The position numbers and the translations under genes are program-made. Of a stretch of 64,000 nucleotides of DNA, positions 2,518-53,030 are shown one piece after another (position 1 is the first letter of the stretch; each line of letters starts with the position of its first letter). Where the stretch lies: assembly GCA_025336685.1 (NCBI GenBank), contig GCA_025336685.1_4717.1; one strand, 5' to 3'. This DNA is from Escherichia coli. GTDB lineage: Bacteria > Pseudomonadota > Gammaproteobacteria > Enterobacterales > Enterobacteriaceae. Below the pieces are notes generated by a model that was not told the origin of the DNA, ran no database searches, and saw only the letters and a program-made list of their open reading frames with translations.

Positions 2518-2546
2518 CCCTCCCACAGCGTAAAGCGTAGGGAGGG
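2518..2546. terminator. GC-rich stem-loop CCCTCCC-N15-GGGAGGG between convergent genes (putative bidirectional terminator)
   Basis: Perfect 7-bp inverted repeat read directly in the sequence, placed between the stops of 2147-2512 (+) and 2578-3858 (-). Confidence 0.5.
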
Positions 2547-2577
2547 CATTTATGCCGTCGTTCGTTGGCTTAGCACA

Positions 2578-3858
2578 TCAGAAACGATTTACAGTACGTC
2601 CTGTCCATGCACTCAGGATGTTGTTACGTTCCATCTCAGCCCGACGACGTAAGCCGTTTGGTGACTGCGGTGCTTGCGGCATCCCCCACCCAGCAGGCTG
2701 CATACCCATACCAGGCCAAGCGGAATTATTGAACATCGTACCGTTACGTTCCGCAACACGATTCATTAATGTATCAAACGTGCTATTACCTGCCGGTTGA
2801 TTACCGCCGCTTTCCCATTGATTAGGTTGAACAGGTGTAGTTTTACCCAACAGGTTATCAATCACGTTACTCGTTGCAGCAGGACGCGGTTGCATGCCTT
2901 CATGTGCAGCTGCTGATGGATTTGGCTTAACCGTCGGCTGCGGACGACTGTTCAGCGTTACACCCATGTTGTATTTCGCTGGTGGAATCTGACCACGATG
3001 TTGGGTAATCGGCTCAAAATCCTCGACCCAGGTAACATCGCAATAACCGTTCTCTTTACCGTCGTACTTATCACCAAACAGTTTGATAAGATTGTTCAGC
3101 GGTTCCATCAGCTTCGCGAAGCTGTGGATAAGACAATCGAAATACGGAGCATGAGGATCGCTTGACCCAGCATTATACGTTTCACTTACCTCACCGGAGT
3201 GAGGGATAACGTACTCAACCAGGTTTCTCAGCATGTTAAGATCTTTCTTGGAAATCTCAACACCACACCAGTACGTTTTCTTATCTTTCGTGCTGATGTG
3301 TTCCTCTTCCATGAACGGGAAAGTAACTACCGCAACGCGGGTCATCTTCTTACCCATGTAGGTTGCGCCAGTACGACGAAGATAAATTTTAGACAACGTA
3401 TACGGTGTGTCACGTTTCAACCAAACGGTGACCAGTTTACCTAACGTCGTTAGCGTTTTATCGCTGGCATCCGCAAGGATATTGAAGAACTCTTTTTGCT
3501 TCGGTCCGAAACGTTTTGCTTCTTTAGGATTGATTGCGGTTTCAACCATCCAAATCAGCATGGAACACAGTGTGGCGTTAAAACGAACAACCATTGCACG
3601 ACGCAGGAACTGAAGTACTTCCGATTCACCATTCATCACGTCTTCACTTAGCGGATGGAACAGTACACGTTCGGCGAGTTGATTTCCGGTACGAACTTCG
3701 GGAACCGGCATCAGCAACGGCATGCTTTCCACGGTAGCGGCAACTGCAACAACTTTACCATCCCCATCTGTAAAACGATATTCTAATTCGTGGGCGTCAT
3801 TTTCAAAATAGTTAACGCTTTGCAGCGCTTTGCGATAAGCTTCAATAAGCTTCGACAT
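2578..3858 (-). CDS. hypothetical protein (426 aa) with Q/P/G/M-rich C-terminal region
   Basis: Long ORF; low-complexity C-terminus (GMGMQPAGWGMPQAPQSP); no catalytic motif recognised. Confidence 0.55.
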   Translation of the reverse strand: MSKLIEAYRKALQSVNYFENDAHELEYRFTDGDGKVVAVAATVESMPLLMPVPEVRTGNQLAERVLFHPLSEDVMNGESEVLQFLRRAMVVRFNATLCSMLIWMVETAINPKEAKRFGPKQKEFFNILADASDKTLTTLGKLVTVWLKRDTPYTLSKIYLRRTGATYMGKKMTRVAVVTFPFMEEEHISTKDKKTYWCGVEISKKDLNMLRNLVEYVIPHSGEVSETYNAGSSDPHAPYFDCLIHSFAKLMEPLNNLIKLFGDKYDGKENGYCDVTWVEDFEPITQHRGQIPPAKYNMGVTLNSRPQPTVKPNPSAAAHEGMQPRPAATSNVIDNLLGKTTPVQPNQWESGGNQPAGNSTFDTLMNRVAERNGTMFNNSAWPGMGMQPAGWGMPQAPQSPNGLRRRAEMERNNILSAWTGRTVNRF

Positions 3859-3886
3859 ATTGCGTTTCCTTTTCTTTTACGTCAAC

Positions 3887-3907
3887 GGTCCCCTACAACA
3901 GGGGACC
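3887..3907. terminator. stem-loop GGTCCCCT-loop-AGGGGACC downstream of the 3914-5500 gene
   Basis: 8-bp inverted repeat immediately after the stop of the minus-strand two-gene operon. Confidence 0.4.
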
Positions 3908-3913
3908 TATGGA

Positions 3914-5500
3914 TTAGAAGTTGCCTTTGGTAGTTACCGCATCCACCAGGTTAAACAAATCAACACTCAGCTTGTAAACCTCCTGCTGACTACGGTTGAG
4001 CAGCGGGCTGTACGCGGATGGGTTGATGTTCGGCATGGTGTACGGAATCGGTGAAGAGCCGTCAACGCTGATCTTGAACTGGCTGTCCAGGAACAGGTTA
4101 ATCGCACCACTCACCATAACCGCGTTCGGGTTGTTACCCAACATGGAGGGCAGGATATTGGTAATCATGTCGGAACGCATCTGTTCAGCAGCGCGGTTAC
4201 AATCATACCCTTTAATGAACGGTACAGCGTCAGTAACCGCAACCGCCCATTGCCCAGGCATGATGCCTAGTTCTGGATGGCCGTGGTTATCAGCAATGAA
4301 ACGGAACGACTCCAACATGCGATACGTCATCGCAGCAGGCATCATCGCAGCAAGTGATGAACAATACAGCGTTGGATAATCGATAACGTCCCAGCTCTGG
4401 CTATCGGTCGGCATCCAACCAAACTCGGTGGTTGCCGATGTACCGCGACGAGCTTCCACGTACGGGAACAGTCTTAAGACATCACGGACATGCTCGCCGA
4501 ACATCCGTTTCATATCAGCCCAACTCAGGCTACCGCTGAAGGCGAATCCCTCATCACGCATAATCGCACCGAATACCGGATGCGCAACCAACGGTTCTTC
4601 ACGAACAGCTTGAGCTGCTTCTACGTAAATATCCTCATTCTCTGCGCTACCTGGATGAGACCCGCTTTCGTACGTCTGACGAATAGCCCCGACGTTATCG
4701 AAGGCTTTTCTTAGATAGATGGTTGGGATGTTCGTATCAGCACTCGCTGGTTTGATTTTCTCCGTTGCGAAACACATTGCTGCTTCCACACCACGAAAAA
4801 CCGGTTCCGGTTGCGATTGATAGGAAGAGCGATGAACCACATCAGCGTAGGCTGGATCGAACTGCTGCATCACGTTCTGCATGGCTGGGTCCATGAACTG
4901 GTTATCAAAACCACCATTGCCTACCCAACGTGCAGTCGACGCATAAGTCAGCGTATCCTGAACACGAGTACTGAACTGAACATCACGATTAACAGGGTCG
5001 TATGCGCCAGTCAAAAGGTTCGTTGCGTCCATCGGGGTCGCGCGAACGATTTGCTTACCGAACATATCCGTTGTGGTTGTTTCGGTTACCTGGATTACAT
5101 TCGTGAAGAAGAACACCAGTTCGTTCGGCAGATCGATGGCACGTGTTGTAAACGCATCGAGGCTTACCGAATGGTCGGTGTATCCAGAAATGTAATGGAC
5201 GCGCTTGGTTCCTGGTGCAAGGGCCAAGGATTCTTCCACAGCCATCATGAAATGGAAACGACGTGTGCCCCAACCATTCGCAATCTCCGAAACCCCCTCA
5301 GGTTCTGCAGACTGCTGTAACAAACCGGTTGCAAGCTTATTGATTGCTGATGGGGTTGTTGCCGTACCGAACTTCGTCGTGTTAATAAAGTCTTCGATGC
5401 TACGCATGCTATCTGCATGGAATCGTAGTGGACGACGTTGTACGTTGTTGTACGGTGCGGTTTCAACCATCAGTATTTCACGAACATTCATCGGGATCAT
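3914..5500 (-). CDS. hypothetical protein (528 aa)
   Basis: Long ORF starting 1 nt after the stop of the upstream 5502-7088 gene, so probably co-transcribed from the promoter at 7184; no motif recognised. Confidence 0.55.
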   Translation of the reverse strand: MIPMNVREILMVETAPYNNVQRRPLRFHADSMRSIEDFINTTKFGTATTPSAINKLATGLLQQSAEPEGVSEIANGWGTRRFHFMMAVEESLALAPGTKRVHYISGYTDHSVSLDAFTTRAIDLPNELVFFFTNVIQVTETTTTDMFGKQIVRATPMDATNLLTGAYDPVNRDVQFSTRVQDTLTYASTARWVGNGGFDNQFMDPAMQNVMQQFDPAYADVVHRSSYQSQPEPVFRGVEAAMCFATEKIKPASADTNIPTIYLRKAFDNVGAIRQTYESGSHPGSAENEDIYVEAAQAVREEPLVAHPVFGAIMRDEGFAFSGSLSWADMKRMFGEHVRDVLRLFPYVEARRGTSATTEFGWMPTDSQSWDVIDYPTLYCSSLAAMMPAAMTYRMLESFRFIADNHGHPELGIMPGQWAVAVTDAVPFIKGYDCNRAAEQMRSDMITNILPSMLGNNPNAVMVSGAINLFLDSQFKISVDGSSPIPYTMPNINPSAYSPLLNRSQQEVYKLSVDLFNLVDAVTTKGNF

Positions 5501-5501
5501 T

Positions 5502-7088
5502 TTATTTTTTTCCTCTTAAATTTACTACATGTTCATTTAATCGAACAACTAATTGCACAAGCTGCTGACGGATATCTGCTGGGCAAAGCATCAATCCTTT
5601 ACGATCAGCTGGGACTTTCTCAAGGATTTCCGGACCTGCTGCGGAAACATCCCAATCCCATTCACAAAACGCATCAGCCACCATGTTAATACCGACAACC
5701 GGTAAAGTTGTACGTTCATCTTCATACATGGCATGCGGATACAATTTATTGACGGTAATGACCTCCTGTGGTTTTAACTGATGGATAATCTGGTAAACGT
5801 CGTCGCGTTTAACCTGGATACCTACGGTCAGCGCAGCCAGTTGAGGAAAACCCCAATGGTCTAATAAGCACGCTGCGATTGCTAACGCTTTTGCCTGATG
5901 TACGGCTTCAATCGGTGATAGACTTCTCGCTGGAAGATGACTATCAAGCAACCATTGTGCCAATGCTCGGCATCCACGGTTGATTGGTTTTAACTCAATG
6001 CTGTCATCATGTTTAGCGTAGGTGTATCCGTCGTAACGTTTTGCGATACGCGCATACATGTCTTCAACTTTACCGTAAGGTGCTGTTTCGTCGACGTCAT
6101 GCAACACCCGTTCCATCTGGGTAAGATACGCGATATCAAGGATGAGTACGCGTGGTGAACGTTTATCTTTCACCATCAACGCATCAATCACGCCTTGACT
6201 GTCTTCATCTTGCGCATTCCCTCGCGGCGTTTTCTCGCGAATCGGTCCGCTGAAACGTCGTTCCGTACAAAGGTTATTCACATAGCTAAAGATCAACGTT
6301 ACCAGGTGCGTACAACTCACCAACACTCCATCTTTAACGACAGGCTGTACGGCTTGGTCCAAATCGCGTACTGCGAGACGGCGAACGATGGCTTGTGAAC
6401 GCAACCAACCAGGTACTTTCTCTGTCGACATGTAATCCACCGTCATCGACAGCGTGATCTTTTTATCGCCTGTCTGTGCACGGATATAATCTTCCAGTCG
6501 GTCGTAAGCAGCGATATCATGAATGCGTGTTTTATACATCAACGACATAGCCACTTCTTCTTTACGTACCGTCCCGTACGTTTTCCCTGCGTCAATCAGA
6601 AACTCCGCCCAAATCGGCACCATCAGCCGGACGTAGATCGCTAACGCCGTTAACTCAACGTAATCGTTTCGTAAATAGGTTTTCTCAGGTATGTCATCCT
6701 CACCTAATGTTGTTTTCATGTCTGGCGGTAATTTTACCCAACCTGGGGTATTACACAACGCCAGAATCTCTTCATAGACGATCGGTTTGTAAATTTCACC
6801 GACGGCGCGGCTCAACTCCTCCATTTGTTGCTGTGGAGCAATGTAGTTATCCATCGCTTCACGTGCTTTAACGAACCCTTCGAAGATGTCGTCGATTCGA
6901 CGTGGGTTCTTTTGTTCTATCCAAGCGAGATACTTATTAATCTCTCGCATCTGATTGCTAGCCATATCCCCATCAATCTTGATGTAGCCTTGGCCTGAAA
7001 ATTCCACGGCACGTCCGTCACGATGTTTGATGAGATAGTGATCCAGCTTTTCTTTGCCTTGCGTCGTAATGACGGGCACAATGTGCAT
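5502..7088 (-). CDS. hypothetical protein (528 aa), first gene of a promoter-driven operon
   Basis: Long ORF about 96 nt downstream of a TATATTAC-type promoter motif. Confidence 0.55.
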   Translation of the reverse strand: MHIVPVITTQGKEKLDHYLIKHRDGRAVEFSGQGYIKIDGDMASNQMREINKYLAWIEQKNPRRIDDIFEGFVKAREAMDNYIAPQQQMEELSRAVGEIYKPIVYEEILALCNTPGWVKLPPDMKTTLGEDDIPEKTYLRNDYVELTALAIYVRLMVPIWAEFLIDAGKTYGTVRKEEVAMSLMYKTRIHDIAAYDRLEDYIRAQTGDKKITLSMTVDYMSTEKVPGWLRSQAIVRRLAVRDLDQAVQPVVKDGVLVSCTHLVTLIFSYVNNLCTERRFSGPIREKTPRGNAQDEDSQGVIDALMVKDKRSPRVLILDIAYLTQMERVLHDVDETAPYGKVEDMYARIAKRYDGYTYAKHDDSIELKPINRGCRALAQWLLDSHLPARSLSPIEAVHQAKALAIAACLLDHWGFPQLAALTVGIQVKRDDVYQIIHQLKPQEVITVNKLYPHAMYEDERTTLPVVGINMVADAFCEWDWDVSAAGPEILEKVPADRKGLMLCPADIRQQLVQLVVRLNEHVVNLRGKK

Positions 7089-7182
7089 AACAACCTCTTT
7101 TCGCGGTTCCCTGTTGAAACGTCTTCTGTGACGTCTACCACAAAGGTAACATTTATGTCGCCTCTATGACTTTGTTCATAGA

Positions 7183-7200
7183 GGTAATATAAGCGTGAAT
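7183..7200 (-). promoter_or_regulatory. phage promoter, minus-strand core TATATTAC with extended consensus (attcacgCTTATATTACC)
   Basis: Plus-strand gtaatata at 7184-7191. One of five sites sharing ttcaSg-N-YTATATTACC with an A/T-rich upstream flank, all upstream of minus-strand genes. Core matches the early promoter element reported for phiKZ-like phages. Confidence 0.6.
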
Positions 7201-7330
7201 AATTTTGGATTCCAGCTGAGTTATCGCTCAGCATGCAAGGCATCCCGCCGAAGCGAGACACCTTGCACTAACGGAAAGTATTCGCGTTACCTTCTGAGTC
7301 TTCGATTCAGAATGCGAAGCTAAAGCATTA

Positions 7331-8119
7331 TTAGAACGCTAAGCCATCAAAGGCTACAGACGGATCATCGTCGTCATTTGCGCTTGGTGCATCCCAACGG
7401 GTATCAGGGGCAGCTGGGGCCGAACGTGATGCGTTAGAGTTACCGTTGTACTGGCCGTTACCAGCATTACGGTTACCGCCGCCGTTATTATTGTTGCGAT
7501 TATAGCTGTTGTTGCCATTACTTACGCTACGGCTCTCACCATCGAAATTGGTTGCGAGGATGCTTGGCAACACAGCACGATGGATGCGTACGAATTCCAA
7601 TGCACAAAGCGGAGAAACAACCCCGATCTGCAACGGTTGCCCAGACTCATCAACCAGAGAGTGGAAACGTGGTGGTTTGAATACGAACTGGATGTTTGGT
7701 TTCTGGTATGCTGTTACAGCGATGTATACCGAACCATCATCATTCTTACCAACCCATGTTGTACTTTCGGTAATCTGTTTCTTCTTACCTGGGTTATTGC
7801 GATCATCAATAACCTTTTCGTTCTTCATCGCAAAGCGTTGACCTGGTTTACCCTTAGCAACCTGCTCAAGGATCGCAAGCAGGTTGTAGAACGCGTATGA
7901 ACTCATGCGTGCCCAAATGCTTTCAGCGCGACCCTGCTGGTCTTTACGACCTGTATAAACCGTGATACGCGGTTGATTCTTAGCAACGCTAATTTTCAGT
8001 GAGGGGACCGAATTGCCACCCTCAACTTTTTCGTCCGCCCACAGTTTCCAGTTGTTGTCGTCGTAAGCCGTAGGAATAATGTTTCCTTGTGGTTTACTAC
8101 CCGAATTCCAATTGCTCAT
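7331..8119 (-). CDS. hypothetical protein with N/G-rich linker and acidic C-terminal tail (possible ssDNA-binding protein)
   Basis: C-terminus is NGNNSYNRNNNNGGGNRNAGNGQYNGN...DDDDPSVAFDGLAF, resembling the flexible linker plus acidic tip of SSB proteins; the N-terminal domain is not recognisably an OB fold by eye. Confidence 0.3.
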   Translation of the reverse strand: MSNWNSGSKPQGNIIPTAYDDNNWKLWADEKVEGGNSVPSLKISVAKNQPRITVYTGRKDQQGRAESIWARMSSYAFYNLLAILEQVAKGKPGQRFAMKNEKVIDDRNNPGKKKQITESTTWVGKNDDGSVYIAVTAYQKPNIQFVFKPPRFHSLVDESGQPLQIGVVSPLCALEFVRIHRAVLPSILATNFDGESRSVSNGNNSYNRNNNNGGGNRNAGNGQYNGNSNASRSAPAAPDTRWDAPSANDDDDPSVAFDGLAF

Positions 8120-8192
8120 TTTCAGCCTCGTTACGTAGTGTGCATCAATTTCTGGTTCAGATGATTGTCAATATTAGTTAAAAATTACAGCC

Positions 8193-9026
8193 TCAGCGGA
8201 ACATGTCCAACAGAAAACGTTTTGCGAAGGGGTCGCGTAACTGGTTGACACCAAAGCGTGTACGGTCTTCCGTTGTTAACGGATTCCACTGACTCTGTTT
8301 CGCAAGATCTAACAGCATCCTTTTTATTTTCACCGGTCCGCTGTTAAACTGTACGGCTTGGTCACCGAACGTTCCCAATGTCATCTTTGTAAATGGGAGG
8401 TTCGCAACCTCTGGACGATCCCCACCAGTAAGTTTGGTTGACCACTGATGTTTTCGTTTCAAAGTTCCGGTATGACTCTCTACCAAAATAAGTTCACCAA
8501 AACCGGTTCTTGCCAACAAGTCAGAAACATAGTGCGTGGTGATATACGATGTTTTGGTTATCGTGGGTAATTTACAATCCATCGATTCGATATTAGGGAG
8601 TCGATCTACAGACGCCATCAACCCACGATAAAGTGTAGCGAGTCCTTTTTGTTTTTCGGTATGTGGCTCCTTGTGTATAGCGTGCGGATAAACACGCTTT
8701 ATTGATGCATAGGTTGGCGCATATATCCGCAAACGAATATGGGGAACGAGTTCATTCACCAACTGCCTTAGCTGCAGCAACTCGTTTTGAAAATCCCCCG
8801 TTATCATCGATAATGGTAATTTATGTTGCTCGACGTCTTCAAAGCTTTCAACAAAATTGCGCGCTAAAGTACGCAGGTTGAACAACCAATCCATCGGTGT
8901 TTCTGGCTGTTGCTGTACTGCTGATAATGTTGCTGACGTCCCCACCGATAAAGGATAATCACCTAGCGTGCGGGCGTACATATCGCTCATACCCCACAAC
9001 TCCTTCTTATCATGGCAACGTATCAA
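8193..9026 (-). CDS. hypothetical protein (277 aa)
   Basis: ORF in the same-strand operon; no motif recognised. Confidence 0.5.
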   Translation of the reverse strand: MIRCHDKKELWGMSDMYARTLGDYPLSVGTSATLSAVQQQPETPMDWLFNLRTLARNFVESFEDVEQHKLPLSMITGDFQNELLQLRQLVNELVPHIRLRIYAPTYASIKRVYPHAIHKEPHTEKQKGLATLYRGLMASVDRLPNIESMDCKLPTITKTSYITTHYVSDLLARTGFGELILVESHTGTLKRKHQWSTKLTGGDRPEVANLPFTKMTLGTFGDQAVQFNSGPVKIKRMLLDLAKQSQWNPLTTEDRTRFGVNQLRDPFAKRFLLDMFR

Positions 9027-10152
9027 GCCAAGCAGAAACCTTTAAGGCATCAACGTTCGGGTATTTATTACGGATGCGTTCGACCAACAAACGCTTAACG
9101 TTGTCCTTTGTCAAGTCCCCACCCTTCTCGATAACGTTATTGACAAAACTGTTCTTTAATAGCGACTGGTTGTTCTTGGCATCCGTTTTAATTGACCAGA
9201 CAAAACCTGGATACAAAGAAGGGATAGAACGAAACGTTTTCGCTGCGTCGTCTTCCTTATCGCAGCGTATTCGAATATGATCGCCCTTCTTCAATGGAGC
9301 CAATTCCCGTTCCAACACACGGACAATTTCATCTCCAACAAGACCATGCAGTTTTATCGTCTTGTAGACATCTGCTTTCTTGTTCTCAACAAATTCCCAT
9401 TGGTCGTTAAACGATTCTGTTAACGTATAACGGAGGTACCCCTTTGGACCTTCTTCGCCATGCGACAAGCGACCGAACGAACCGCCAACCATGATACGTC
9501 CTTTCTGGGATTGTAAGTGAATATGTCCGCTCACAATCCATCCCTGGGTCTTCTCCACCATTGCGTTATACGCATCACTGCTATGAACACATGTCGCTTT
9601 TAACGCTTCTGGTGGAAGCTGATATTCGAACGCACCGTGCATCAGAATGAAGTCCGGCGATCCCTTCTCATCAATAAGTCGGTTCACGGCTGACAACGTC
9701 ACATCCGGGTCGTGGCTGTAGTTATCTGGAAGATAAAGTACTTTTAAACCAAAGTCTTCATCAACCATGCAGAGGTCATCGTAATAACGAACTTTCGCTC
9801 CTATCTCCATGACCTCGTTCTGCTCAACGAACCACTGGCTTTGCTTCTGGTCGTGTAAATTGGTACCCTCAAGAAAGATCAATGTAATATCGTGTTTTCT
9901 CGCATACCGTAACAACCAGGTACCCCAAGCACGAACAGCAACCACGTCACTCGTTACAAACGTCGTAATACGATCGAAGACATCACCACTGAACGTAATC
10001 ACGTCAAGCAGCGCAGGATCTTCTTTGGTGATGTAATAACGTAGCTGGTTAATCAGGTTTACTGTTGGTGTTTGACGATGGATAAAGTGAATATCCGACA
10101 AATTGATTCCACGTAATACCCCAGGCGTTTTATTTCGACTGAAGTCTCGCAT
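9010..10152 (-). CDS. calcineurin-like metallophosphoesterase (Mre11/SbcD-like nuclease candidate)
   Basis: Ordered phosphoesterase motifs: LSDIHF (D-x-H), GDVFD (GD), GTNLHD (GNHD-like), MHGAFEY, SGHIHLQ (GH-x-H). Confidence 0.6.
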   Translation of the reverse strand: MRDFSRNKTPGVLRGINLSDIHFIHRQTPTVNLINQLRYYITKEDPALLDVITFSGDVFDRITTFVTSDVVAVRAWGTWLLRYARKHDITLIFLEGTNLHDQKQSQWFVEQNEVMEIGAKVRYYDDLCMVDEDFGLKVLYLPDNYSHDPDVTLSAVNRLIDEKGSPDFILMHGAFEYQLPPEALKATCVHSSDAYNAMVEKTQGWIVSGHIHLQSQKGRIMVGGSFGRLSHGEEGPKGYLRYTLTESFNDQWEFVENKKADVYKTIKLHGLVGDEIVRVLERELAPLKKGDHIRIRCDKEDDAAKTFRSIPSLYPGFVWSIKTDAKNNQSLLKNSFVNNVIEKGGDLTKDNVKRLLVERIRNKYPNVDALKVSAWLDTLP

Positions 10153-10934
10153 CAGAATTCCTCTAAATCGCTGCTGCTAATAGTCCCCGTCGTAGACGAC
10201 ATGTTTCTACTGCTCGCCGACGCTGTTGTTGCGGATGTTCTGGCTAGATTCAATCCATTTAATAACCCGCGCTCTTTTACCGTACGACGCGAACCATCAC
10301 GAACATCGTAAAGAGGTACGTTGTAATGGTCAAAAATCCGAAGCCATTGCACGTAATCAGCAACAACATGGTCTTTGCTTTCATTCGGAGCAAAGCGATC
10401 GAGCTGATGGTCAACATACGCTTTTGCGCTTTCAGGATTGAAGTTATACTGTCGACGTGCTTTATCCACCATCGCGAGGAAACATGTGTTGGGGTCACGA
10501 TTGATGTATGAACGCGTCCGGATAAAGATAGCCGGTACCGTAAACAGAACCTTGTTGTTATTCCCGTCAGTGACAATATTAACGGCACGATGTGGCTGAC
10601 CTGCTATCTTACACCAATCATGGACAATGGTGCTATTACTCAACATCTCCGCGTATTCAGGATCCTGAGAAAACATTCCTGCGAACGGATACAAGAAATG
10701 TTTAACAAACAGCGATTCGGGCAGGATGTTGGGACGCGTCATCTCCTGTAAACCTTTTCGTAGAAGCTCGCTGTTGTCTACCAGCTCCTGCCACATGTCC
10801 GGTCGTGTTTTCGGGATGGACGGATCCTGAGCGCGACGAATGCGTTCTTCTTCATTTACAACCACTACCCCGGCCGGATACCCCAATAAATCCGTTCCTT
10901 CGCTAACGTTGCTGTTAGTTTGGTGCGCCTTCAT
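10152..10934 (-). CDS. hypothetical protein (260 aa)
   Basis: ORF abutting the phosphoesterase gene (start/stop overlap); no motif recognised. Confidence 0.5.
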   Translation of the reverse strand: MKAHQTNSNVSEGTDLLGYPAGVVVVNEEERIRRAQDPSIPKTRPDMWQELVDNSELLRKGLQEMTRPNILPESLFVKHFLYPFAGMFSQDPEYAEMLSNSTIVHDWCKIAGQPHRAVNIVTDGNNNKVLFTVPAIFIRTRSYINRDPNTCFLAMVDKARRQYNFNPESAKAYVDHQLDRFAPNESKDHVVADYVQWLRIFDHYNVPLYDVRDGSRRTVKERGLLNGLNLARTSATTASASSRNMSSTTGTISSSDLEEF

Positions 10935-11322
10935 TTACTTCCTCCTGCCACTTGACAAAATTACCACGCTCGGATCGCAGAACACCGCCCAAATCGTACG
11001 ATATACCTTTCTCTGTGACAATCCCGCCAATCTGGAGATCGACACGTTCCGTCGTCGGATCGATATACTTGACACGGACTTTCAATTCCACACGATCGTA
11101 ATAACGCATTAAATAATCATACAACATCCGGTATGTCGCATCTTCCAATTTGGGTGCGCTATACTGCGATGTTGCAATGAGGTACGGTAGTGAAACGATG
11201 GAACCTTGATAGCAATACGACTGGGAATGATTCGATATTGCGAAATTGGTCATTAACCCATCCAGCTTTTTTCCCGACGCGGTTAAAAAGCTCGACAGTC
11301 CAGGTAACGGATTCGATGCCAT
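10915..11322 (-). CDS. hypothetical protein (135 aa)
   Basis: ORF in operon context. Confidence 0.4.
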   Translation of the reverse strand: MASNPLPGLSSFLTASGKKLDGLMTNFAISNHSQSYCYQGSIVSLPYLIATSQYSAPKLEDATYRMLYDYLMRYYDRVELKVRVKYIDPTTERVDLQIGGIVTEKGISYDLGGVLRSERGNFVKWQEEVNEGAPN

Positions 11323-11335
11323 GAGGAACTCCTCT

Positions 11336-11785
11336 TTAAGCGTAATTCATTCCAACCAATCTATCGTAGTTAGGCATATGCCCTAACTTCAGTTCGATAG
11401 GCATGGATACGTTGGTGCGCGGTGCGTAAAATGTTCGCGTATGCATATCGATATACCCACAGTCCAAATAAACAATATCGGACAACTCTGCCGGATGTTT
11501 AGGTGTGGGAATCTTTAGTCGATTATAACACTCGAGCTGCCACCAGGCATGAAAAAAGTTATTGTAAGCGTACGATTTACTGTTGGCAACTTTAAGTCCG
11601 TAGACCACCCATAACGCCGCCATGAAGTTGGTTGCGTTAATTCGCATCGGTTGTTCATTATTGAGCATGTACGTGTAGGTAAACAAGGGCGTGTTACCAT
11701 CACCGAAACGTCCGACCAAGGTATTGTTTGTGCGTTCGACCTCAAAGGAAAAATGCTGGCTGCTATTACCATCAAAATGAATCAT
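11336..11785 (-). CDS. hypothetical protein (149 aa)
   Basis: ORF in operon context. Confidence 0.45.
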   Translation of the reverse strand: MIHFDGNSSQHFSFEVERTNNTLVGRFGDGNTPLFTYTYMLNNEQPMRINATNFMAALWVVYGLKVANSKSYAYNNFFHAWWQLECYNRLKIPTPKHPAELSDIVYLDCGYIDMHTRTFYAPRTNVSMPIELKLGHMPNYDRLVGMNYA

Positions 11786-11902
11786 TCTGTTCTCCCCAAG
11801 CTTTTCATTTCATAGAGTGGTGGAAATTCGTAGAAAGTTACAAAAATAAAAAGAATGGGTAGTCCCTCCCCACCCGAAGGTAGGGAGAGACCACAGATGT
11901 AT

Positions 11903-12367
11903 TTAAACCAATGCTGCGATAACGTCGTTAACATTACGACCACGCAACTCTGCCGCCAAACGAATAACTTCATCCAGGGAACGGTTTGTACGAATCTTAG
12001 CTACTTTCCAATTTTCAGGATACTGTTCGAAGTTAAGTAACCAAGTCATTACCTTTGCTTGTTCCACACCGTTGAGTTTGATTGTCGTGCGTGGATTGGC
12101 TTTGAACCACTTCTTGCTCAGCTGTGCCATACGGCGAACAGGGTAAGCGTAAGCGCGAGTCCAATCTTTGGACAGATTGTCGAGTAACTCACGGTAGCTG
12201 CTATCGTAGTCTTTGTTGATACGACGTAATAACCAGTTGGCGGTCATCTGATAGAGTTTATCATCTTCGCGTAACCGCATCCCTGCTACTGCTAAATAAA
12301 CGATAAGACCTGCACCCATGATGAGAGACAGGATAAACAGAACTTGGGTTTCTTGTGCTAAAGTCAT
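11903..12367 (-). CDS. hypothetical membrane-anchored protein (154 aa)
   Basis: N-terminal hydrophobic segment VLFILSLIMGAGLIVYLAVAG followed by a charged domain; first gene after a TATATTAC promoter. Confidence 0.5.
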   Translation of the reverse strand: MTLAQETQVLFILSLIMGAGLIVYLAVAGMRLREDDKLYQMTANWLLRRINKDYDSSYRELLDNLSKDWTRAYAYPVRRMAQLSKKWFKANPRTTIKLNGVEQAKVMTWLLNFEQYPENWKVAKIRTNRSLDEVIRLAAELRGRNVNDVIAALV

Positions 12368-12459
12368 TTTACTATCCTCGGATTTCGTTAGGATTTGATT
12401 TCCAATATAAGGACAATGTGATATGCCTTATACAGTCGATTGATGTTGTACATCACTTA

Positions 12460-12477
12460 AGTAATATAGCCGTGAAA
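12460..12477 (-). promoter_or_regulatory. phage promoter, minus-strand tttcacgGCTATATTACT
   Basis: Plus-strand gtaatata at 12461-12468, about 94 nt upstream of the 11903-12367 start; matches the extended consensus. Confidence 0.6.
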
Positions 12478-12486
12478 AATGTTGGA

Positions 12487-13302
12487 TTAACGTGTTCTCC
12501 TATCACGATGCGTATACGACTGAAGACCGATGTCCATATGCGGTAACGTCAGCGTCTGCCAGATCTGTCGTGCATAGCGATCGAGCGTATGATCGTCAGT
12601 AACACAATCGACCGGTTCGATGAGGTGCGTCGTATACTGGCTTTTCTCGGAGAAAGGTTCTATGTTAGCGGTGTCCCCTAATCCGCTTTTCACCGTGAAG
12701 ACGAGACGAGTAATTATCATCGCCTTATGCTGCTGTTCATTATAGCGAAGGCTACGATATACGGCATAGCTCCCCCCTTTTAAGCTTCGGGTATAACGAA
12801 GGTCGGAGGTCGTCTCGGAAATCTGATACAGCATCCAATCCAACGTATCTCGCCAGTACGCATCATCCACATCAGGAACCGTGATACCATAACGCGTAGG
12901 CAGCAGTTCTAAAAGCAATTTATAAAGTCCTCGACGCAGACCATGCTCTTCTGTTTCAGACAAACCGTGTCCAACGTAACGTGAGATACGCGTACGTAAA
13001 TACGTACGGATGAACATATTTGTCATCAGTGATTTCGCGCTACTACTGGTATCCTCAAAGCGATCAACACTGAAACTCGTTTCAATCGGCTGCCCATTAA
13101 AGTACAATGCGGCAACATACATCGCATTACTGCTATCTCGTTCAATGTTTAAACGCCCGCAGATATTGGCTGCGTCGTTCATGGTAAATTCTAACTTATC
13201 GTGTTCGATACGATAGATAATATCCTCTTGGGTTGCTAAGCTCGCAATGCGACGATAACCCGGAGAAGTGCGTTTTACACCCATGATTGTCCTCGTTTTC
13301 AA
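12487..13302 (-). CDS. hypothetical protein (271 aa)
   Basis: ORF; no motif recognised. Confidence 0.5.
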   Translation of the reverse strand: MKTRTIMGVKRTSPGYRRIASLATQEDIIYRIEHDKLEFTMNDAANICGRLNIERDSSNAMYVAALYFNGQPIETSFSVDRFEDTSSSAKSLMTNMFIRTYLRTRISRYVGHGLSETEEHGLRRGLYKLLLELLPTRYGITVPDVDDAYWRDTLDWMLYQISETTSDLRYTRSLKGGSYAVYRSLRYNEQQHKAMIITRLVFTVKSGLGDTANIEPFSEKSQYTTHLIEPVDCVTDDHTLDRYARQIWQTLTLPHMDIGLQSYTHRDRRTR

Positions 13303-13325
13303 TTTAAGATTACATGCAGCATAAA

Positions 13326-13350
13326 CCCTCCCCGCATAAGGCAGGGAGGG
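13326..13350. terminator. GC-rich stem-loop CCCTCCC-N11-GGGAGGG
   Basis: Inverted repeat between the 13366-14004 stop and the 12487-13302 start. Confidence 0.5.
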
Positions 13351-13365
13351 TAGCCATTGAATAGA

Positions 13366-14004
13366 TTAACCTAATTTACCACCGGCGATATTGGTGAAAT
13401 CTTCGCCATCAGGAACTTGCAGTAGAATACGTGCCATGTCCCAGTTGGTTAATGTGATTGCTTTATCATCGATACTCAGTTCTGGTAGGTCGAGTTCATG
13501 ATCATCAAACTCGTAGGAAATACTCCACGTTTCATCTGTTTTAGGATCCGTCATCAATACACCGTCTGTCACACGCATGTAGTCCGGATGCAGTTCATTA
13601 CTGAACGTACTGAACGGATCGGTGTAACATTCAGCATACCCCTCGATCTGCTGACGCTGTGCCTTCGTACGTAATTCAGGGCACGCCATGATCAGTTGTC
13701 GAGATATGCCGTTTGCAGCACGGAAGTCTTCCACAGTGTTACATGGCATAACCACATCGTCATGGAAGATGTTCTCCGATTGTCTCAACAGCGTCTTACG
13801 GAGTTCAGCATAGTTTATCTGATTGAATGCATCGAACGTTGCTAACGATTCAGCGTAAAAATGCTTTACGTGTTCGCTTGCGCCACCGAGACTATTCATC
13901 AACTTATGGCCGTACTCCATAAAGCTTTTATCGAGACCGGAGGACATTTCTCCGAACCTCAGTGCACGATAACTGTCTCGTCCACCTGTAAATATTTGCG
14001 CCAT
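13366..14004 (-). CDS. hypothetical protein with RNA polymerase beta 'region I'-like motif (possible small beta C-terminal fragment)
   Basis: N-terminus FTGGRDSYRALRFGEMSSG resembles the universal beta motif GG...RFGEME. Gene starts 13 nt after the beta-prime exon-2 stop with an AGGAGG RBS. Confidence 0.4.
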   Translation of the reverse strand: MAQIFTGGRDSYRALRFGEMSSGLDKSFMEYGHKLMNSLGGASEHVKHFYAESLATFDAFNQINYAELRKTLLRQSENIFHDDVVMPCNTVEDFRAANGISRQLIMACPELRTKAQRQQIEGYAECYTDPFSTFSNELHPDYMRVTDGVLMTDPKTDETWSISYEFDDHELDLPELSIDDKAITLTNWDMARILLQVPDGEDFTNIAGGKLG

Positions 14005-14019
14005 TACAGGCGTCCTCCT

Positions 14020-16925: not shown

Positions 16926-16967
16926 GGGACATCTCCTACAAATGAAAAAGAACGTTAGGACGTATAA

Positions 16968-16991
16968 GGGAGGGAGGTTGCCCTCCCTCCC
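16968..16991. terminator. strong GC hairpin GGGAGGGAGG-loop-CCTCCCTCCC downstream of the 17018-18913 gene
   Basis: 10-bp perfect stem with a 4-nt loop, 27 nt after the stop codon, followed on the minus strand by a T-rich stretch. Confidence 0.55.
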
Positions 16992-17017
16992 GTCAGATTA
17001 CATCGAACGTTCTTCCA

Positions 17018-42893: not shown

Positions 42894-43036
42894 ATGTAAT
42901 TCCTTTATTACGGCATATAAGAAAACGGGTTAAGCACACAGATTTACGCATAATTGTAATTTTTTACGTTATGCCTATGACATTGTGTCACGTGTGCAAT
43001 TATGTCATACAATTTCCTTAAATTAAGGAGAGTTCC

Positions 43037-46040: not shown

Positions 46041-46077
46041 CCTTCCTTCCCCGGCCTTGATGGCTAGGGAAGGAAGG
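46041..46077. terminator. bidirectional terminator CCTTCCTTCCC-N15-GGGAAGGAAGG flanked by A-run and T-run
   Basis: 11-bp perfect stem, AAAAAAA upstream and TTTATGGTTTATTT downstream; between convergent genes 45125-46015 (+) and 46090-46629 (-). Confidence 0.6.
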
Positions 46078-46089
46078 TTTATGGTTTAT

Positions 46090-46629: not shown

Positions 46630-47090
46630 TACTCAAACTCCTTATTCCAAAACTCGATTAACGAATCGAGCTGTTCCTTACTGGTTATCTCACCTCCCTT
46701 AACAAAATGAAATCGTTCTTGAATCGCGATCTTTTCAAGGATATCGGTAAGCAAATGACGATGACAGAAATTTCCTGCAGGACAATAACACCCTAACACC
46801 ATAACCGGATGGGAGAATAAAGACAACCATTCCGATGTATGATCAACAAAGCTTTTACGCATGAGTGCGTAGTAGCCTGCGGTATATTCATCCTCGGTTA
46901 ACGTTTTTGATTTGATTCCTGTAACAAGTTCCCATGAAGGTGCGTAGAGCGGGTTACCTGTTTTCACCGTTGTGTCCAGTAGGAACGCCCGTGTGTCTGA
47001 AAGCCAACGATATTTAGCTAATTGAAGGGTGTATAAAAACATAGCACTAACCCCCAAAGGATAAAAATAAAACCTTAACATAACCACCAC
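46629..47090 (-). CDS. hypothetical protein with Cys/His cluster (GCYCPAGNFCHRHLL)
   Basis: ORF; conserved-looking C-x-C...C-H-R-H motif suggests a small metal-binding domain of unknown function. Confidence 0.4.
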   Translation of the reverse strand: MVVMLRFYFYPLGVSAMFLYTLQLAKYRWLSDTRAFLLDTTVKTGNPLYAPSWELVTGIKSKTLTEDEYTAGYYALMRKSFVDHTSEWLSLFSHPVMVLGCYCPAGNFCHRHLLTDILEKIAIQERFHFVKGGEITSKEQLDSLIEFWNKEFE

Positions 47091-47147
47091 CGCAACCCCA
47101 TTACAGGGCTACGGTGGGGTCATACAGAGAGACGTGTTATGTTACAA

Positions 47148-47749: not shown

Positions 47750-47767
47750 GGTAATATAGACCTCAAC
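47750..47767 (-). promoter_or_regulatory. phage promoter, minus-strand gttgaggTCTATATTACC
   Basis: Plus-strand gtaatata at 47751-47758; matches the extended consensus. Confidence 0.6.
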
Positions 47768-48560: not shown

Positions 48561-48663
48561 CTTTTAAATTCCTACTTAACAATAAAGTTTATATACGGCG
48601 TATGTATCCGTAGAATAATGAGTTCTGGTAAGATCTTACATCAAAATGACGGCATAAAAAGTA

Positions 48664-48689
48664 CCTCCTTACCCATGTGGGTAAGGAGG
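48664..48689. terminator. hairpin CCTCCTTACCC-ATGT-GGGTAAGGAGG
   Basis: 11-bp perfect stem in the intergenic region between 47763-48560 and 48842-49651. Confidence 0.45.
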
Positions 48690-48841
48690 TTCGTCCATCA
48701 CGACGGAAGGACGTTATGTGACGCGGTGTCCATAACGGCCCTGGTAGCAGGCATTAAAAAGATAACAAAAGGATGTAAGTTGAGCTAAACCACCTAAATA
48801 CGGTAACGATTACTTCCGTACACAATATAACGTAACATCTT

Positions 48842-49651: not shown

Positions 49652-49729
49652 AACCCCTTTATAAGCAACTGAATGAAAAACGTTACCTTCCCGCTTTTTA
49701 TATCAAGAAGGCGACACGTAAGCGTTATA

Positions 49730-50461: not shown

Positions 50462-50462
50462 A

Positions 50463-51173
50463 TCACCCCCTCAGAATCGCTTCTGTTTCGCTGATCGTAT
50501 CCGCAGGATAAACCAAACTACTGTCGATTGCGTTATTCACGTAACCACCCATTAAGTTGGTGATGGTGTTTGTACCACTATCGATAATGTTTCGTAATCC
50601 GATGTCGATGGCTTTTAAGGTGCTGCGTTCCTCATCCGAAAGTAAACGCCACGCTCGACGACGATCGTTGGGGTCACGTGTGGTGATAGAAGCCAGAACA
50701 GAATAGATGCTGCTGTCTGCGTTCAGTTTAACACCCGCCAATTTCGCTGACGTGTAGAGCAGCTGATATTTTTCTTTTTCGGTATACCACCATGGCACTT
50801 TACCGAGCGTATAGATCTCGTTATACATCAGCCATGGGAAAGAGTTTCGCATCACGACATCGGTTGACACCAACACCGTGTCGCCGGGAAGAAATACAAA
50901 TTCGTAAAACGGCTGACCATCCATGGTAATCTCACGGATGTCAGATGGGTCGATATGGAGCTGAGTCAATGCGTGGCTGACACCATACTGACCATCGGGA
51001 AGAATAATCGGGCAGCACGCACAAACCCGGTTCTCACTCCCGATGATAGATAAACCCAATCCCTCGTAACGGACGGGCGTCAGAATCGAACACCCGCCAC
51101 GAGTAACAACAGATTTATCTTCTTGTATGTCCCAGTCCGCAAGCACCGCAGCACCGTTGCGGACAAGCGCCAT
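50463..51173 (-). CDS. hypothetical protein (236 aa)
   Basis: ORF starting 1 nt after the stop of the upstream gene. Confidence 0.5.
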   Translation of the reverse strand: MALVRNGAAVLADWDIQEDKSVVTRGGCSILTPVRYEGLGLSIIGSENRVCACCPIILPDGQYGVSHALTQLHIDPSDIREITMDGQPFYEFVFLPGDTVLVSTDVVMRNSFPWLMYNEIYTLGKVPWWYTEKEKYQLLYTSAKLAGVKLNADSSIYSVLASITTRDPNDRRRAWRLLSDEERSTLKAIDIGLRNIIDSGTNTITNLMGGYVNNAIDSSLVYPADTISETEAILRG

Positions 51174-52697
51174 TTACACCTCGCTAATCTGGATAACGTA
51201 AAGCTGTTGGGCCACGTAATCGGTGGTCAGATGCATTGTTGCGATGGTCGCAGCTTCGAATACCGTGAGTTCAGGACGTTCACGCATAATCAAATCGATC
51301 TCGTCGATGAGACGGTTAACGCCTTGAGCGTCTTCATGATGCATGGTTTTCACGTACAGTGTGCGGAAATACTGCTGGAAGTTAGCTACGTCGGTATCGG
51401 TAAGAGTAGCAACTTCACCACGCACAATTTCCATAACCTTCTTACGGGTATCTTCATCGAGGTCCACCGTAATCAGGTCAGCAAATACACCCTGCAATGC
51501 CAACGCGTATGCACGTAAGCGGTTTGCGGCTTGCTGGCTGGCTTTCATGTTGATGTAGTTACGGTAATGCTGCATGAAGCCAGCACCGTTAGCCAACAGT
51601 TCGTCTTTACTGATGAGTTCGCGTTCTAACAGGACGGCTGCGGTTAGTGCTTCCGGTGAACCGCCTTCTTGCAGATAACCCATGTAGACATCCGCATTAA
51701 CGAAAATCGTCATCGTTGATGCGTCTTCAGCACGTTGAATCTGAGAAGCTGATGGTGCAGAAAGAATCAGCTCACCACGCTCCATACGCAGGATACGATC
51801 ACGACCGACGCGTGCCATCCCATTGATCGCCGCAGCACGAGCTTGTTGCATTTTAGCGCGGTAGTTTTCAAGCATCATGTCGTTGCCGTCCTGGATATCT
51901 TCCAGCAGGTTAACGGCCCACATGTAGCAGAGGAATGCAGGAGTTGCCGCAGCGCGCGAACCATGGAATGCAACGTTGTCGCTATCCGGATACGTAATCA
52001 GATAAGCGGTGGTGTTCGAAGAAGGAGCGGAGCCACGGAAGAAATAGTTGTAGATGTCTTCCAGTGCCTGATCGCTCATCCCTTCCGTCGCTTGCTGCAC
52101 AAAACGATCCAGGTTTTCATTACCAGTATACAGCAACGTACGCAGCTTATCACCGGTGATAAACGCAAGCTTTTCGGTTGGGGTGAAATCGTTATTAATC
52201 GAAATCAAGCCGTTGAGATCGTAATCGCCAACTAAGGCCTGGTACTCTTCGGAGTTATAAAACTCAGGATAGTAACTCAGACTTACCGTCGGGATCAGTT
52301 TCGGGGCCAGGATGATCGAATCGATACGTTTTTCCAGTTCCGGGTACAGCGCACGGCATTTCGGCAGGATGGTATTACGTGCCAACTCTTTGGCATACAC
52401 CACTTTTTCCACCACGTCTTGAACTGCGGTCTGTAAAACTTCATCGTGGATATAAACCTCGCGTTCGCTGGCAGGTGCTACAGCGCCATCTTCGGTTTCA
52501 TCAAGTGTTTCAGCAACAACCATACGTTCAGCACTAAGCTGCACCAACGCATCCGCATCTTCCGGCGGCTGGTTCCAATGCATGGTTTCACAAACCGCGG
52601 CTAACGGGGTACCTGGAATGGCTGCGACGATTTGGTTACGTTTGATAAACCCTTCGACAATGGGCTCAACGGCATAAACGGTTTTATTGGTGATCAT
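51174..52697 (-). CDS. hypothetical protein (507 aa)
   Basis: ORF; tightly packed with neighbours. Confidence 0.5.
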   Translation of the reverse strand: MITNKTVYAVEPIVEGFIKRNQIVAAIPGTPLAAVCETMHWNQPPEDADALVQLSAERMVVAETLDETEDGAVAPASEREVYIHDEVLQTAVQDVVEKVVYAKELARNTILPKCRALYPELEKRIDSIILAPKLIPTVSLSYYPEFYNSEEYQALVGDYDLNGLISINNDFTPTEKLAFITGDKLRTLLYTGNENLDRFVQQATEGMSDQALEDIYNYFFRGSAPSSNTTAYLITYPDSDNVAFHGSRAAATPAFLCYMWAVNLLEDIQDGNDMMLENYRAKMQQARAAAINGMARVGRDRILRMERGELILSAPSASQIQRAEDASTMTIFVNADVYMGYLQEGGSPEALTAAVLLERELISKDELLANGAGFMQHYRNYINMKASQQAANRLRAYALALQGVFADLITVDLDEDTRKKVMEIVRGEVATLTDTDVANFQQYFRTLYVKTMHHEDAQGVNRLIDEIDLIMRERPELTVFEAATIATMHLTTDYVAQQLYVIQISEV

Positions 52698-52930
52698 TAC
52701 TGCGCTCCCTCCAACGCATTACTACCTACGGGTTCTTTGGTTTCCAGACGGCTGTTTAAGCGTGCAGCAACCGCATCTTCCAATCCCAACGGCATAACCT
52801 TTTTGTTCACGTCAGGATCGGCGGCATCATTACCAACGGTTTGACGTACGACCTCAGCAACCAACGTTACCGCGTTCGTCAGCGCAACAAAGCTCGCTGC
52901 CCGAGCCGTGTTAAGTTGTTCTTGGTTCAT
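52697..52930 (-). CDS. hypothetical small protein (77 aa)
   Basis: ORF. Confidence 0.35.
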   Translation of the reverse strand: MNQEQLNTARAASFVALTNAVTLVAEVVRQTVGNDAADPDVNKKVMPLGLEDAVAARLNSRLETKEPVGSNALEGAQ

Positions 52931-53006
52931 TCACTTTTCCTTTTAATGTCAGAGCATCGCATTCTTGACGTACGTCAAGAAGGTACTGCGTTCAGCGAAA
53001 TAAACG

Positions 53007-53030
53007 AGCAGGGGCATGAAGCCCCCTGCT
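53007..53030. terminator. hairpin AGCAGGGG-loop-CCCCTGCT with T-rich flanks
   Basis: Inverted repeat immediately after the 53032-54255 stop. Confidence 0.5.

Follow-up and report, generated by a model that had tools for sequence, protein, structure and literature searches.

A stretch of 64,000 nucleotides in an Escherichia coli assembly (contig GCA_025336685.1_4717.1, referred to in its whole length as the window) carries a family of GC-rich hairpins at gene ends, which we consider to be, with good probability, the factor-independent (intrinsic) terminators of a phage. The assignment is made by analogy, as the hairpins resemble a conserved type of terminator first defined in the Pseudomonas phage phiKZ, and some of the elements are bidirectional. 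A role in termination or at transcript 3′ ends had been proposed in an earlier, sequence-only reading of the window, and is supported by the position of the hairpins after stop codons, by stronger folding of the sense strand and by arms and a downstream box similar to those of the mapped phiKZ terminators.

The window can be assigned to a relative of the E. coli jumbo phage Goslar, that is, to a Goslar-like chimallivirus, judging from the 94.8% nucleotide identity of a 10-kb stretch to Escherichia phage vB_EcoM_Goslar and from the Goslar proteins, which are colinear over the whole window with approximately 91–100% identity. Goslar is a nucleus-forming, phiKZ-like jumbo phage (chimallivirus). 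Nearly all genes of the window lie on the minus strand, and among them are genes for chimallin, PhuZ, DNA polymerase, terminase, tail sheath and several RNA polymerase β/β′-like subunits. The identity to Goslar, together with the chimallin, PhuZ and RNA polymerase genes, places the hairpins in the kind of genome to which phiKZ-type terminators belong.

Hairpins are concentrated at the ends of genes

The sequence-only reading listed ten hairpins built from a pyrimidine-only and a purine-only arm, and the family it described proved to be real. Nine of the ten were found at the coordinates given and fold as single stem-loops, with computed energies of −16.8 to −28.0 kcal/mol and z-scores of −3.5 to −7.0 against 200 shuffles, none of which (0/200) folded as well. 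The tenth had been misplaced by 11 nt: positions 34912–34940 do not fold (−4.7 kcal/mol, z +0.6), and the true hairpin lies at 34923–34951 (−21.5 kcal/mol, z −5.0). Unbiased local folding of the whole window, with additional folding of each intergenic region, yielded approximately nine members beyond that list (11859–11894, 22557–22584, 26412–26435, 31886–31909, 33421–33459, 47084–47119, 49681–49713, 60716–60738 and 3887–3907).

The earlier reading had named a similar density of inverted repeats inside coding regions as the observation that could count against it; instead, compact strong hairpins were 10-fold denser in intergenic than in coding DNA (19 loci in 4,486 nt versus 25 in 59,514 nt, or 4.24 versus 0.42 per kb; binomial p = 3e-11). 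The inverted repeat CCTCC-N3-25-GGAGG occurs seven times, compared to 0.40 ± 0.67 expected from 300 dinucleotide shuffles (maximum 3), and six of these seven copies fall in the intergenic 7% of the window.

Thirteen elements lie 0–31 nt past a stop codon, five at convergent junctions and two in 5′ leaders, in agreement with the placement described before. That the hairpins are intergenic also holds in general, with the exception of 28581–28605, which is located 13 nt past the stop codon of the convergent gp233, inside the last codons of gp232 (minus strand). The segregation of pyrimidines and purines is true of the stem cores but not of whole stems, and exact CCCTCCC/GGGAGGG arms are found at 2518 and 13326. 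Among clearly segregated stems, ten are pyrimidine-first (pyrimidine fraction of the 5′ arm ≥0.75) and two, at 16968 and 53007, have the purine-rich arm first (fraction ≤0.25), the others being mixed, as is 37597 (0.31). A pyrimidine-first hairpin remains pyrimidine-first when reverse-complemented, so that this preference is independent of strand and compatible with bidirectional use.

The T-tracts noted earlier after several hairpins are only part of the picture. A GC-rich hairpin as in Rho-independent terminators is present in all elements, and nine of 19 have a canonical T-tract, counted as such when 5 or more T fall in 8 nt no further than 2 nt from the stem. The constant feature is instead a box of the form TTAT(G/T)YYGT. 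A simple consensus terminator scan of positions 1–20000 flagged one of the five curated elements located there, 11859–11894.

A conserved box follows the stems

The box found 3′ of the stems, TTAT(G/T)YYGT, had gone unnoticed in the earlier reading and usually takes the form TTATGCCGT. With the elements read along the upstream gene, 14 of 19 have TTAT 0–9 nt past the stem (p = 7.5e-11, the intergenic background being 0.10), and TATG is found past ten of the 19 stems (p = 1.3e-7, background 0.069). Exact TTATGCCGT (TTATKYYGT 9/9) is present at four elements (2550+, 22552−, 26411− and 48657−), with an 8/9 match at three more and 7/9 at several others; the probability of such a match beside a random position is 4e-4 for 9/9, 8e-3 for at least 8/9 and 6e-2 for at least 7/9. 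The spacer between stem and TTAT is T-rich and 0–9 nt long, and wherever minus-strand genes lie in tandem, the box is found on the sense side. As it is also present with stems whose arms are not segregated (22557 and 26412), the box, and not arm composition, is the most constant feature of the family. With up to one mismatch allowed, TTATGCCGT matched 23 times window-wide versus 17.2 ± 3.4 expected, which is no enrichment, so that significance is limited to the exact 9-mer (6 copies) and to the association with stems.

Sense-strand folding and comparison with Goslar

Several stems contain G·U pairs, which are C·A mismatches on the opposite strand. Where the two strands differ, it is usually the sense RNA that folds more strongly. 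Folding energies of sense and antisense strands were −29.5 versus −16.1 kcal/mol for 11859, −31.1 versus −18.5 for 47080–47123, −21.4 versus −18.0 for 13325 and −10.3 versus −6.7 for 49681; elements at convergent junctions fold equally on both strands. Most elements have the same, or nearly the same, outer arms and boxes as in Goslar, compared to 89–95% identity in the flanks; 11859, with compensated arm changes (a T-A pair becomes C-G), and the marginal 49681, with unpaired changes, are the exceptions. Substitutions are located in loops, turn wobble into Watson-Crick pairs or are compensatory. Taken together, the G·U asymmetry and the compensatory changes point to a function at the RNA level, on the sense strand. 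Covariation is limited to few changes because there are no moderately diverged relatives: terminase is at least 99% identical in amino acid sequence among Goslar-like genomes and at most 38% identical in all others, and IMG/VR holds three Goslar-like contigs only.

Three or four hairpins (46041–46077, 13325–13351, 47080–47123 and 31886–31909) have an inner part that is turned into its reverse complement from one strain to another, as seen against Goslar or another Goslar-like contig. The 46041 element shows 7 direct differences from Goslar and 1 after inversion, and the 13325 loop changes from GCATAAGGC to GCCTTATGC, which shows that the inner sequence is free so long as pairing holds. Hairpin-flanked micro-inversions are known in chloroplast spacers, and the flips observed here look like template-switching inversions or recombination between short inverted arms.

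The elements match terminators of phiKZ and 201phi2-1

Putzeys et al. 2024 (PMC10914365) mapped phiKZ transcript 3′ ends by ONT-cappable-seq and reported 61 predicted intrinsic terminators with the motif BCCYCCCCHWWDGGGRRGGBYTTATKYYGT, that is, a hairpin followed by a TTAT region, as well as 42 mapped 3′ ends within 5′ untranslated regions (UTRs). Motif A of phage 201phi2-1 (n = 59) is strongly similar to it (PMC11512511), and eight 201phi2-1 terminators, cloned between two reporter genes, showed termination activity in uninfected Pseudomonas. This kind of terminator was therefore already published in 2024 for these two phages; no description for Goslar-like phages was found in the literature searched, and the Goslar GenBank record annotates three hairpins of this region as putative terminators, none of them of the CCCTCCC type.

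In a direct comparison with 150 kb of phiKZ sequence, the phiKZ elements ACCCTCCC-ATTAC-GGGAGGGT-TTATTTCGT and GCCCTCCC-GCAAT-GGGAGGGC-TTATGCTGT were nearly superimposable on the window element 13325 (−), which in full reads ACCCTCCC-TGCCTTATGCG-GGGAGGGT-TTATGCTGC. Arm order is also similar: among 29 hairpin and TTAT elements in 100 kb of phiKZ, 19 are pyrimidine-first and 2 purine-first, and a minority class of 10 with a 5′-arm pyrimidine fraction below 0.75 carries the same box. Gapless matches of at least 25/30 to the published phiKZ 30-mer numbered 18 in 100 kb of phiKZ and none in the window, because loops are longer here and not because the motif is absent. In place of the compact phiKZ geometry (7–8 bp stem, 4-nt HWWD loop), stems of the window have 8–16 bp and inner regions of 3–15 nt; as other chimalliviruses have loops of 4–12 nt, this geometry represents variation within the same kind.

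MAFFT alignments of window and phiKZ elements gave register shifts, with just 3 pairs in RNAalifold, and covariance models were built with the structure imposed and re-alignment by cmsearch. Model R1, built from phiKZ only, had its best window match at 13314–13354 (−) (23.9 bits, E 1.9e-4), and four of its five top matches were curated elements. Model R2, built from 108 instances in loci of phiKZ and other chimallivirus-like phages, Goslar-like ones excluded, matched 2514–2560 (+) with E 7.6e-4 and 13314–13354 (−) with E 1.5e-3, five of its six top matches being curated terminators. Rfam has no family for these elements, and its sole match at gathering threshold in the window is a group I intron.

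A scan of IMG/VR with the pattern CCCTCCC-N3-12-GGGAGGG-N0-3-TTAT matched at least 120 loci. Of 120 loci, 44 encode relatives of phiKZ or window proteins (28–67% identity), and contigs of 140 kb or more carry at least 39 of the 80 matches listed. In chimallivirus-like loci (n = 96 listed), the free bases after TTAT are G in 86%, C/T in 84%, C/T in 90%, G in 68% and T in 57%, a pattern not seen in the other loci listed (n = 57). Since the search pattern left these bases free, TTATGYYGT is a family-wide feature, recovered independently of the publication. The terminator signal of two Pseudomonas phages thus appears to be a signature of the whole family, and its conservation across hosts argues for co-evolution with the phages' own RNA polymerases and not with those of the host. 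The pattern of arms plus TTATGYYGT is an aid in recognising chimallivirus contigs in metagenomes and in finding compact terminators. For Goslar-like phages, which are one of the main E. coli models of nucleus-forming jumbo phages, the elements of the window provide approximately 19 putative transcription-unit boundaries in 64 kb.

Proposed mechanism and alternative roles

Termination could proceed as follows. The multisubunit RNA polymerases of the phage would transcribe gene arrays located mostly on the minus strand, as may be expected from phiKZ and from the homologous β/β′-like subunits encoded in the window. Where a gene or operon ends, computed folding predicts a GC-rich hairpin in the nascent RNA, in which the C/U-rich arm usually precedes the G/A-rich one. 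The hairpin is followed by a short, weak U-rich stretch ending in UUAU and then by (G/U)YYGU. The polymerase would pause on the UUAU hybrid and the RNA would be released, a step suggested by analogy with intrinsic termination and by 3′ ends at the same motif in phiKZ and 201phi2-1. At convergent junctions the same element could serve both strands, as a pyrimidine-first hairpin has its pyrimidine arm first whichever strand is read, and the two copies in 5′ leaders may act as attenuators.

Several observations weigh against this interpretation. Termination in this phage is deduced from homology of the signal, and the ONT-cappable-seq 3′ ends alone cannot separate termination from 3′ trimming to a protective hairpin. 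Two elements, 22557 and 48663, lie 150–200 nt past the preceding stop codon. Three to five elements are without the box (3887, 49681 and 7233, to which 28581 and 34923 may be added, which have no exact TTAT and keep a box-like sequence). Finally, the models built from foreign phages are significant for 2 of approximately 19 elements, the others ranking near the top with E values of 0.45–10. Their low scores are due to longer stems and loops of different sequence, the architecture being common and the exact sequence not.

A different role, which we consider unlikely, would be that the hairpins serve mainly as 3′-end stabilisers or processing stops, where exonucleases trimming back from downstream ends leave a protected mRNA, perhaps during nuclear export. 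In its favour, stems as stable as these (−17 to −30 kcal/mol) would be an obstacle to 3′ exonucleases, a canonical U-tract is missing from half of the elements and the ambiguity of the mapped phiKZ 3′ ends applies here too, and such a role is not exclusive of termination. However, the downstream TTATGYYGT box is conserved across chimalliviruses, which is hard to explain by trimming alone as the box is absent from trimmed RNA, and the eight 201phi2-1 terminators were active between two reporter genes in uninfected cells. That the elements act as DNA, in the form of cruciforms, recombination sites or protein-binding sites, is very improbable: perfect inverted repeats are present, and the flipping of several hairpins between close strains may mean that they are recombinogenic or prone to template switching, but G·U pairs make several stems stable only as sense RNA and the asymmetric box is oriented with transcription. 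The cruciform reading was rejected on this strand asymmetry. We give equally little credence to the idea, raised in the sequence-only reading, that the hairpins are translational operators in which a purine arm similar to the Shine-Dalgarno (SD) sequence, or a pyrimidine arm similar to the anti-SD, masks a downstream ribosome-binding site. Purine arms do contain GGAGG, and hairpins that sequester the SD are known in phage mRNAs, for example in T4 gene e early transcripts. Nevertheless, the next same-strand start codon lies 11–255 nt beyond the stem, counted from its 3′ end, a distance that never corresponds to SD spacing (approximately 5–10 nt before the start codon), the five elements at convergent junctions have no downstream gene on that strand, and genes have their own SD outside the stems; masking was rejected on this geometry. 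The proposed overlap of 37597–37623 with the terminase ribosome-binding site is not supported either: the terminase SD, GGAGGAG, is abutted by the 3′ arm of 37596 (CCCTCC) but is not part of the 13-bp stem, and in the minimum-energy fold of the full-length element it is left unpaired, pairing with the 3′ arm only upon in silico removal of the 5′ arm. A review (PMC12908238) describes transcription and translation as spatially separated in nucleus-forming phages, which makes co-transcriptional masking unlikely.

The box also has to be considered as a promoter. The phiKZ non-virion RNA polymerase recognises only TATG, initiating at the G (PMC7618050), in line with a late promoter consensus of (−3)TATG(+1), and GP123, a β-like subunit, binds the four non-template TATG bases in a pocket (PMC12809450). 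The box contains this tetranucleotide, which as TATG follows ten of the 19 stems; several boxes are located 18–93 nt upstream of the next gene. Two late genes, gp219 and sheath, are preceded at 21 and 33 nt by the hairpin-less sequences TATGCCGT and TATGTCAT, and such box-like sequences probably serve as promoters there, judging from their position. The elements could accordingly be imagined as promoter hairpins or as terminator-promoter cassettes in which TTATG is a promoter for the non-virion polymerase, but this seems improbable to us, as four boxes at convergent junctions (2551+, 20325+, 34954+ and 46080+) would as promoters yield antisense RNA only, the well-studied promoter p119L has no upstream hairpin, and the published phiKZ analysis classed the motif by 3′ and not by 5′ ends. 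In view of the convergent junctions and of p119L, the hairpin-linked box is best read as part of the terminator, and a dual role as terminator and promoter is possible at some tandem junctions.

A more tentative suggestion, to which we assign a rather low but not negligible likelihood, is that within the terminator the box is a pause signal read by the polymerase, allowing the hairpin to terminate with only UUAU, with the promoter-recognition pocket or an elemental pause being re-used at gene ends. TATG is present in 86% of the chimallivirus boxes listed from IMG/VR. The consensus elemental pause is G-10 Y-1 G+1, or in extended form G-11 G-10 T-3 G-2 Y-1 G+1 (PMC6062546, PMC6336406). If the last U of UUAU is taken as the 3′ end, the elements resemble this consensus in having U at −1, G at +1 and U at −3, while the G-rich arm supplies G at −10/−11 (six of the ten elements with TATG have G at −10, the background being 0.23); they differ from it in having A and not G at −2, and the consensus may not be that of the phage polymerases. 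A fit of the box and G-rich arm to a consensus pause, or capture of non-template TATG by a GP123-type pocket, is thus speculative. The activity of eight 201phi2-1 terminators in uninfected Pseudomonas and the spacer of 0–9 nt in the window argue against a strictly phage-specific mechanism. If true, a pause signal would explain why the sequence of arms and box is conserved from Pseudomonas to E. coli phages, and the overlap between box and promoter TATG provides a testable hypothesis on how these unusual polymerases terminate.

Catalogue of the elements

Energies below are in kcal/mol and box scores refer to TTATKYYGT. On the plus strand, the predicted terminator after gp172 (+), convergent with gp173 (−), spans 2518–2558 and consists of CCCTCCC...GGGAGGG (2518–2546), the spacer CAT and the box TTATGCCGT at 2550–2558 (9/9; −16.8, z −5.0; R2 22.9 bits, E 7.6e-4); with TTATC following on the minus strand, this hairpin is probably bidirectional. 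At the convergent junction of gp245 (+) and the DNA polymerase gene (−), 20277–20332 comprises a hairpin at 20282–20313 (extended 20277–20319), TGGG and TTATGTTAT at 20324–20332 (8/9; −22.0, z −5.3). The putative terminator of gp233 (+) within the 3′ end of the convergent gp232 coding sequence, 28581–28615, is formed by CCTCCCTCG...CGAGGGAGG and then TATTTGCCGT (−18.1, z −4.8). Between gp224 (+) and gp223 (−), at 34918–34962, the hairpin 34923–34951 (−21.5, z −5.0) precedes A and CTATGTTTG, and CTATG is also present 3′ on the minus strand. Between gp217 (+) and gp216 (−), at 46041–46087, CCTTCCTTCCC...GGGAAGGAAGG precede T and TTATGGTTT (−28.0, z −5.1). The two leader elements are a candidate 5′-UTR terminator or attenuator of gp224 (+) in a divergent intergenic region (33421–33471, hairpin and TTATTTTAA) and a candidate 5′-UTR terminator of the tail-fibre gene (60716–60747, CTTCCTTGC...GCGAGGAAG, then TTATTAGGT; −13.1).

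The remaining elements are on the minus strand. An atypical member, 3887–3907, located 6 nt past the gp174 stop codon, has the arms GGTCCCCT...AGGGGACC and no TTAT box. After gp182 (11840–11894), a 16-bp pyrimidine-first hairpin at 11859–11894 is followed by CCATTCTTTTTATTTTTGT (−29.5, z −6.7), and after gp184 (13316–13351), ACCCTCCC...GGGAGGGT at 13325–13351 leads directly into TTATGCTGC (−21.4, z −5.1; R1 23.9 bits, E 1.9e-4; R2 E 1.5e-3). The nuclear-shell gene (chimallin, gp246) is followed at 16959–16991 by a predicted terminator with purine-first arms GGGAGGGAGG...CCTCCCTCCC (16968–16991), then TTATACGTC (−22.4, z −4.6). Upstream of the DNA polymerase gene, 22544–22584 contains the hairpin 22557–22584, without purine/pyrimidine segregation, CTTT and TTATGCCGT (9/9; −17.8, z −6.5), and the orthologous Goslar site is annotated as a putative terminator, as is the element after gp235 (26403–26435), in which the hairpin 26412–26435 is directly followed by TTATGCCGT (9/9; −17.4, z −4.5; R2 12.9 bits). 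The predicted terminator after gp227 (31872–31909) combines hairpin 31886–31909, TAAGT and TTATACTGT (8/9), and that after gp221 (37582–37624) has a 13-bp mixed-arm hairpin at 37596–37624 (−24.7, z −7.0), 3′ of which lie the SD GGAGGAG, TTTAT and the terminase start codon. After gp214 (47075–47123), the hairpin 47084–47119 (extended 47080–47123) is followed by TTATGTTAA (−26.0, z −5.1). The element 151 nt past the head protease gene (48649–48690) has ACCTCCTTACCC...GGGTAAGGAGGT, ACTTT and TTATGCCGT (9/9; −21.8, z −5.5), and a marginal member after gp211 (49671–49713) has a weaker pyrimidine-first hairpin (−10.3), then TTTTTCATTC. Abutting the stop codon of the RNA polymerase β-like gp207, 52995–53031 consists of a purine-first hairpin (53006–53031), GT and TTATTTCGC (8/9; −18.7, z −3.5), with TTATTTAGC 3′ on the plus strand, and is also annotated as a putative terminator in Goslar.

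Neighbouring features of the window

The 242-nt intergenic region 7089–7330 (−), between gp176 and gp175, contains a 16-bp hairpin at 7233–7268 (−26.5 kcal/mol) without a TTAT box, as well as other helices, upstream of an TATATTAC site, and may be a structured leader or a small RNA. The window has five copies of TATATTAC, every one of them in intergenic DNA and on the sense strand (7184–7191, 12461–12468, 18986–18993, 47751–47758 and 55737–55744, all minus); they are preceded by an A-run...TT.AG context, and one is located upstream of the chimallin gene. The same octamer and context are found in phiKZ at early-promoter-like sites, including one upstream of the chimallin gene, and these sites are probably promoters of the virion RNA polymerase, as their sequence and placement suggest. 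In phiKZ, many TTATGYYGT boxes precede the octamer by approximately 20–23 nt, forming regular terminator-promoter cassettes (for example 2130–2168, 29369–29405, 57950–57991 and 108030–108070), an arrangement that the window does not show. Terminators of early units, recognised as such by an TATATTAC promoter further upstream, seemed in the window to avoid the G of TTATG (present in 1 of 5), but in 150 kb of phiKZ there was no difference (7/15 versus 32/63, p = 1.0), and the notion was dropped.

Exact or near-exact copies of the box without hairpins (TTATGCCGT, ATATGCCGT and TTATGTCAT) are found at 52669–52677 (−), 52789–52797 (−), 42910–42918 (−) and 43000–43008 (+), two of them inside gp209/gp208 and two 21 and 33 nt upstream of gp219 and sheath. 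They are candidate TATG-type promoters of the non-virion RNA polymerase.

A group I intron at 15281–15660 (−), which reaches the Rfam gathering score, adjoins the RNA polymerase β′-like gp247. The HNH endonuclease open reading frame (ORF) beside it, 14265–15248 (−), is approximately 29% identical to the Goslar ORF at the same place, which suggests replacement of a homing endonuclease. A second group I intron at 54267–54709 (−) scores 49.4 bits with Rfam RF00028 against a gathering score of 50 (E 4e-11) and, with an HNH-like ORF (54484–55695, −), splits the RNA polymerase β-like gp207 into 55771–58980 and 53032–54255; Goslar gp207 is uninterrupted at that site. The PhuZ tubulin gene (26682–27660, −) matches that of Goslar in two pieces in different frames, joining near 26810, a break which is a frameshift or a sequencing error. 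Goslar gp236 had no tblastn match in the window, and the gp235–gp237 interval is shorter than in Goslar.

Comparison with known systems

Hairpins of the T4 gene e type share with the elements described here an SD-like and an anti-SD-like sequence, but no neighbouring gene in the window has the SD-like arm as its functional SD. Canonical bacterial Rho-independent terminators also consist of a GC-rich hairpin followed by a U-rich segment, and members of the family from 201phi2-1 are active as terminators in uninfected Pseudomonas, presumably via the host polymerase. In contrast to the canonical form, the U-tract of the window elements is short or interrupted (UUAU), with nine of 19 passing the threshold of five T in eight, and both the arms and the downstream box are conserved in sequence.

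The closest likeness is to the terminators of phiKZ and 201phi2-1, which have a C-rich 5′ arm of the CCCTCCC type, a G-rich 3′ arm of the GGGAGGG type, 0–3 nt and TTAT(G/T)YYGT, are located after genes, often bidirectionally between convergent genes and in some cases in 5′ UTRs, and belong, as here, to chimalliviruses that transcribe with their own multisubunit RNA polymerases. The window elements, found in a phage whose host is E. coli, differ from those of phiKZ in their longer stems (8–16 bp, often with an inner second helix), in an inner region of 3–15 nt versus a 4–6 nt loop, and in a more variable spacer before TTAT.

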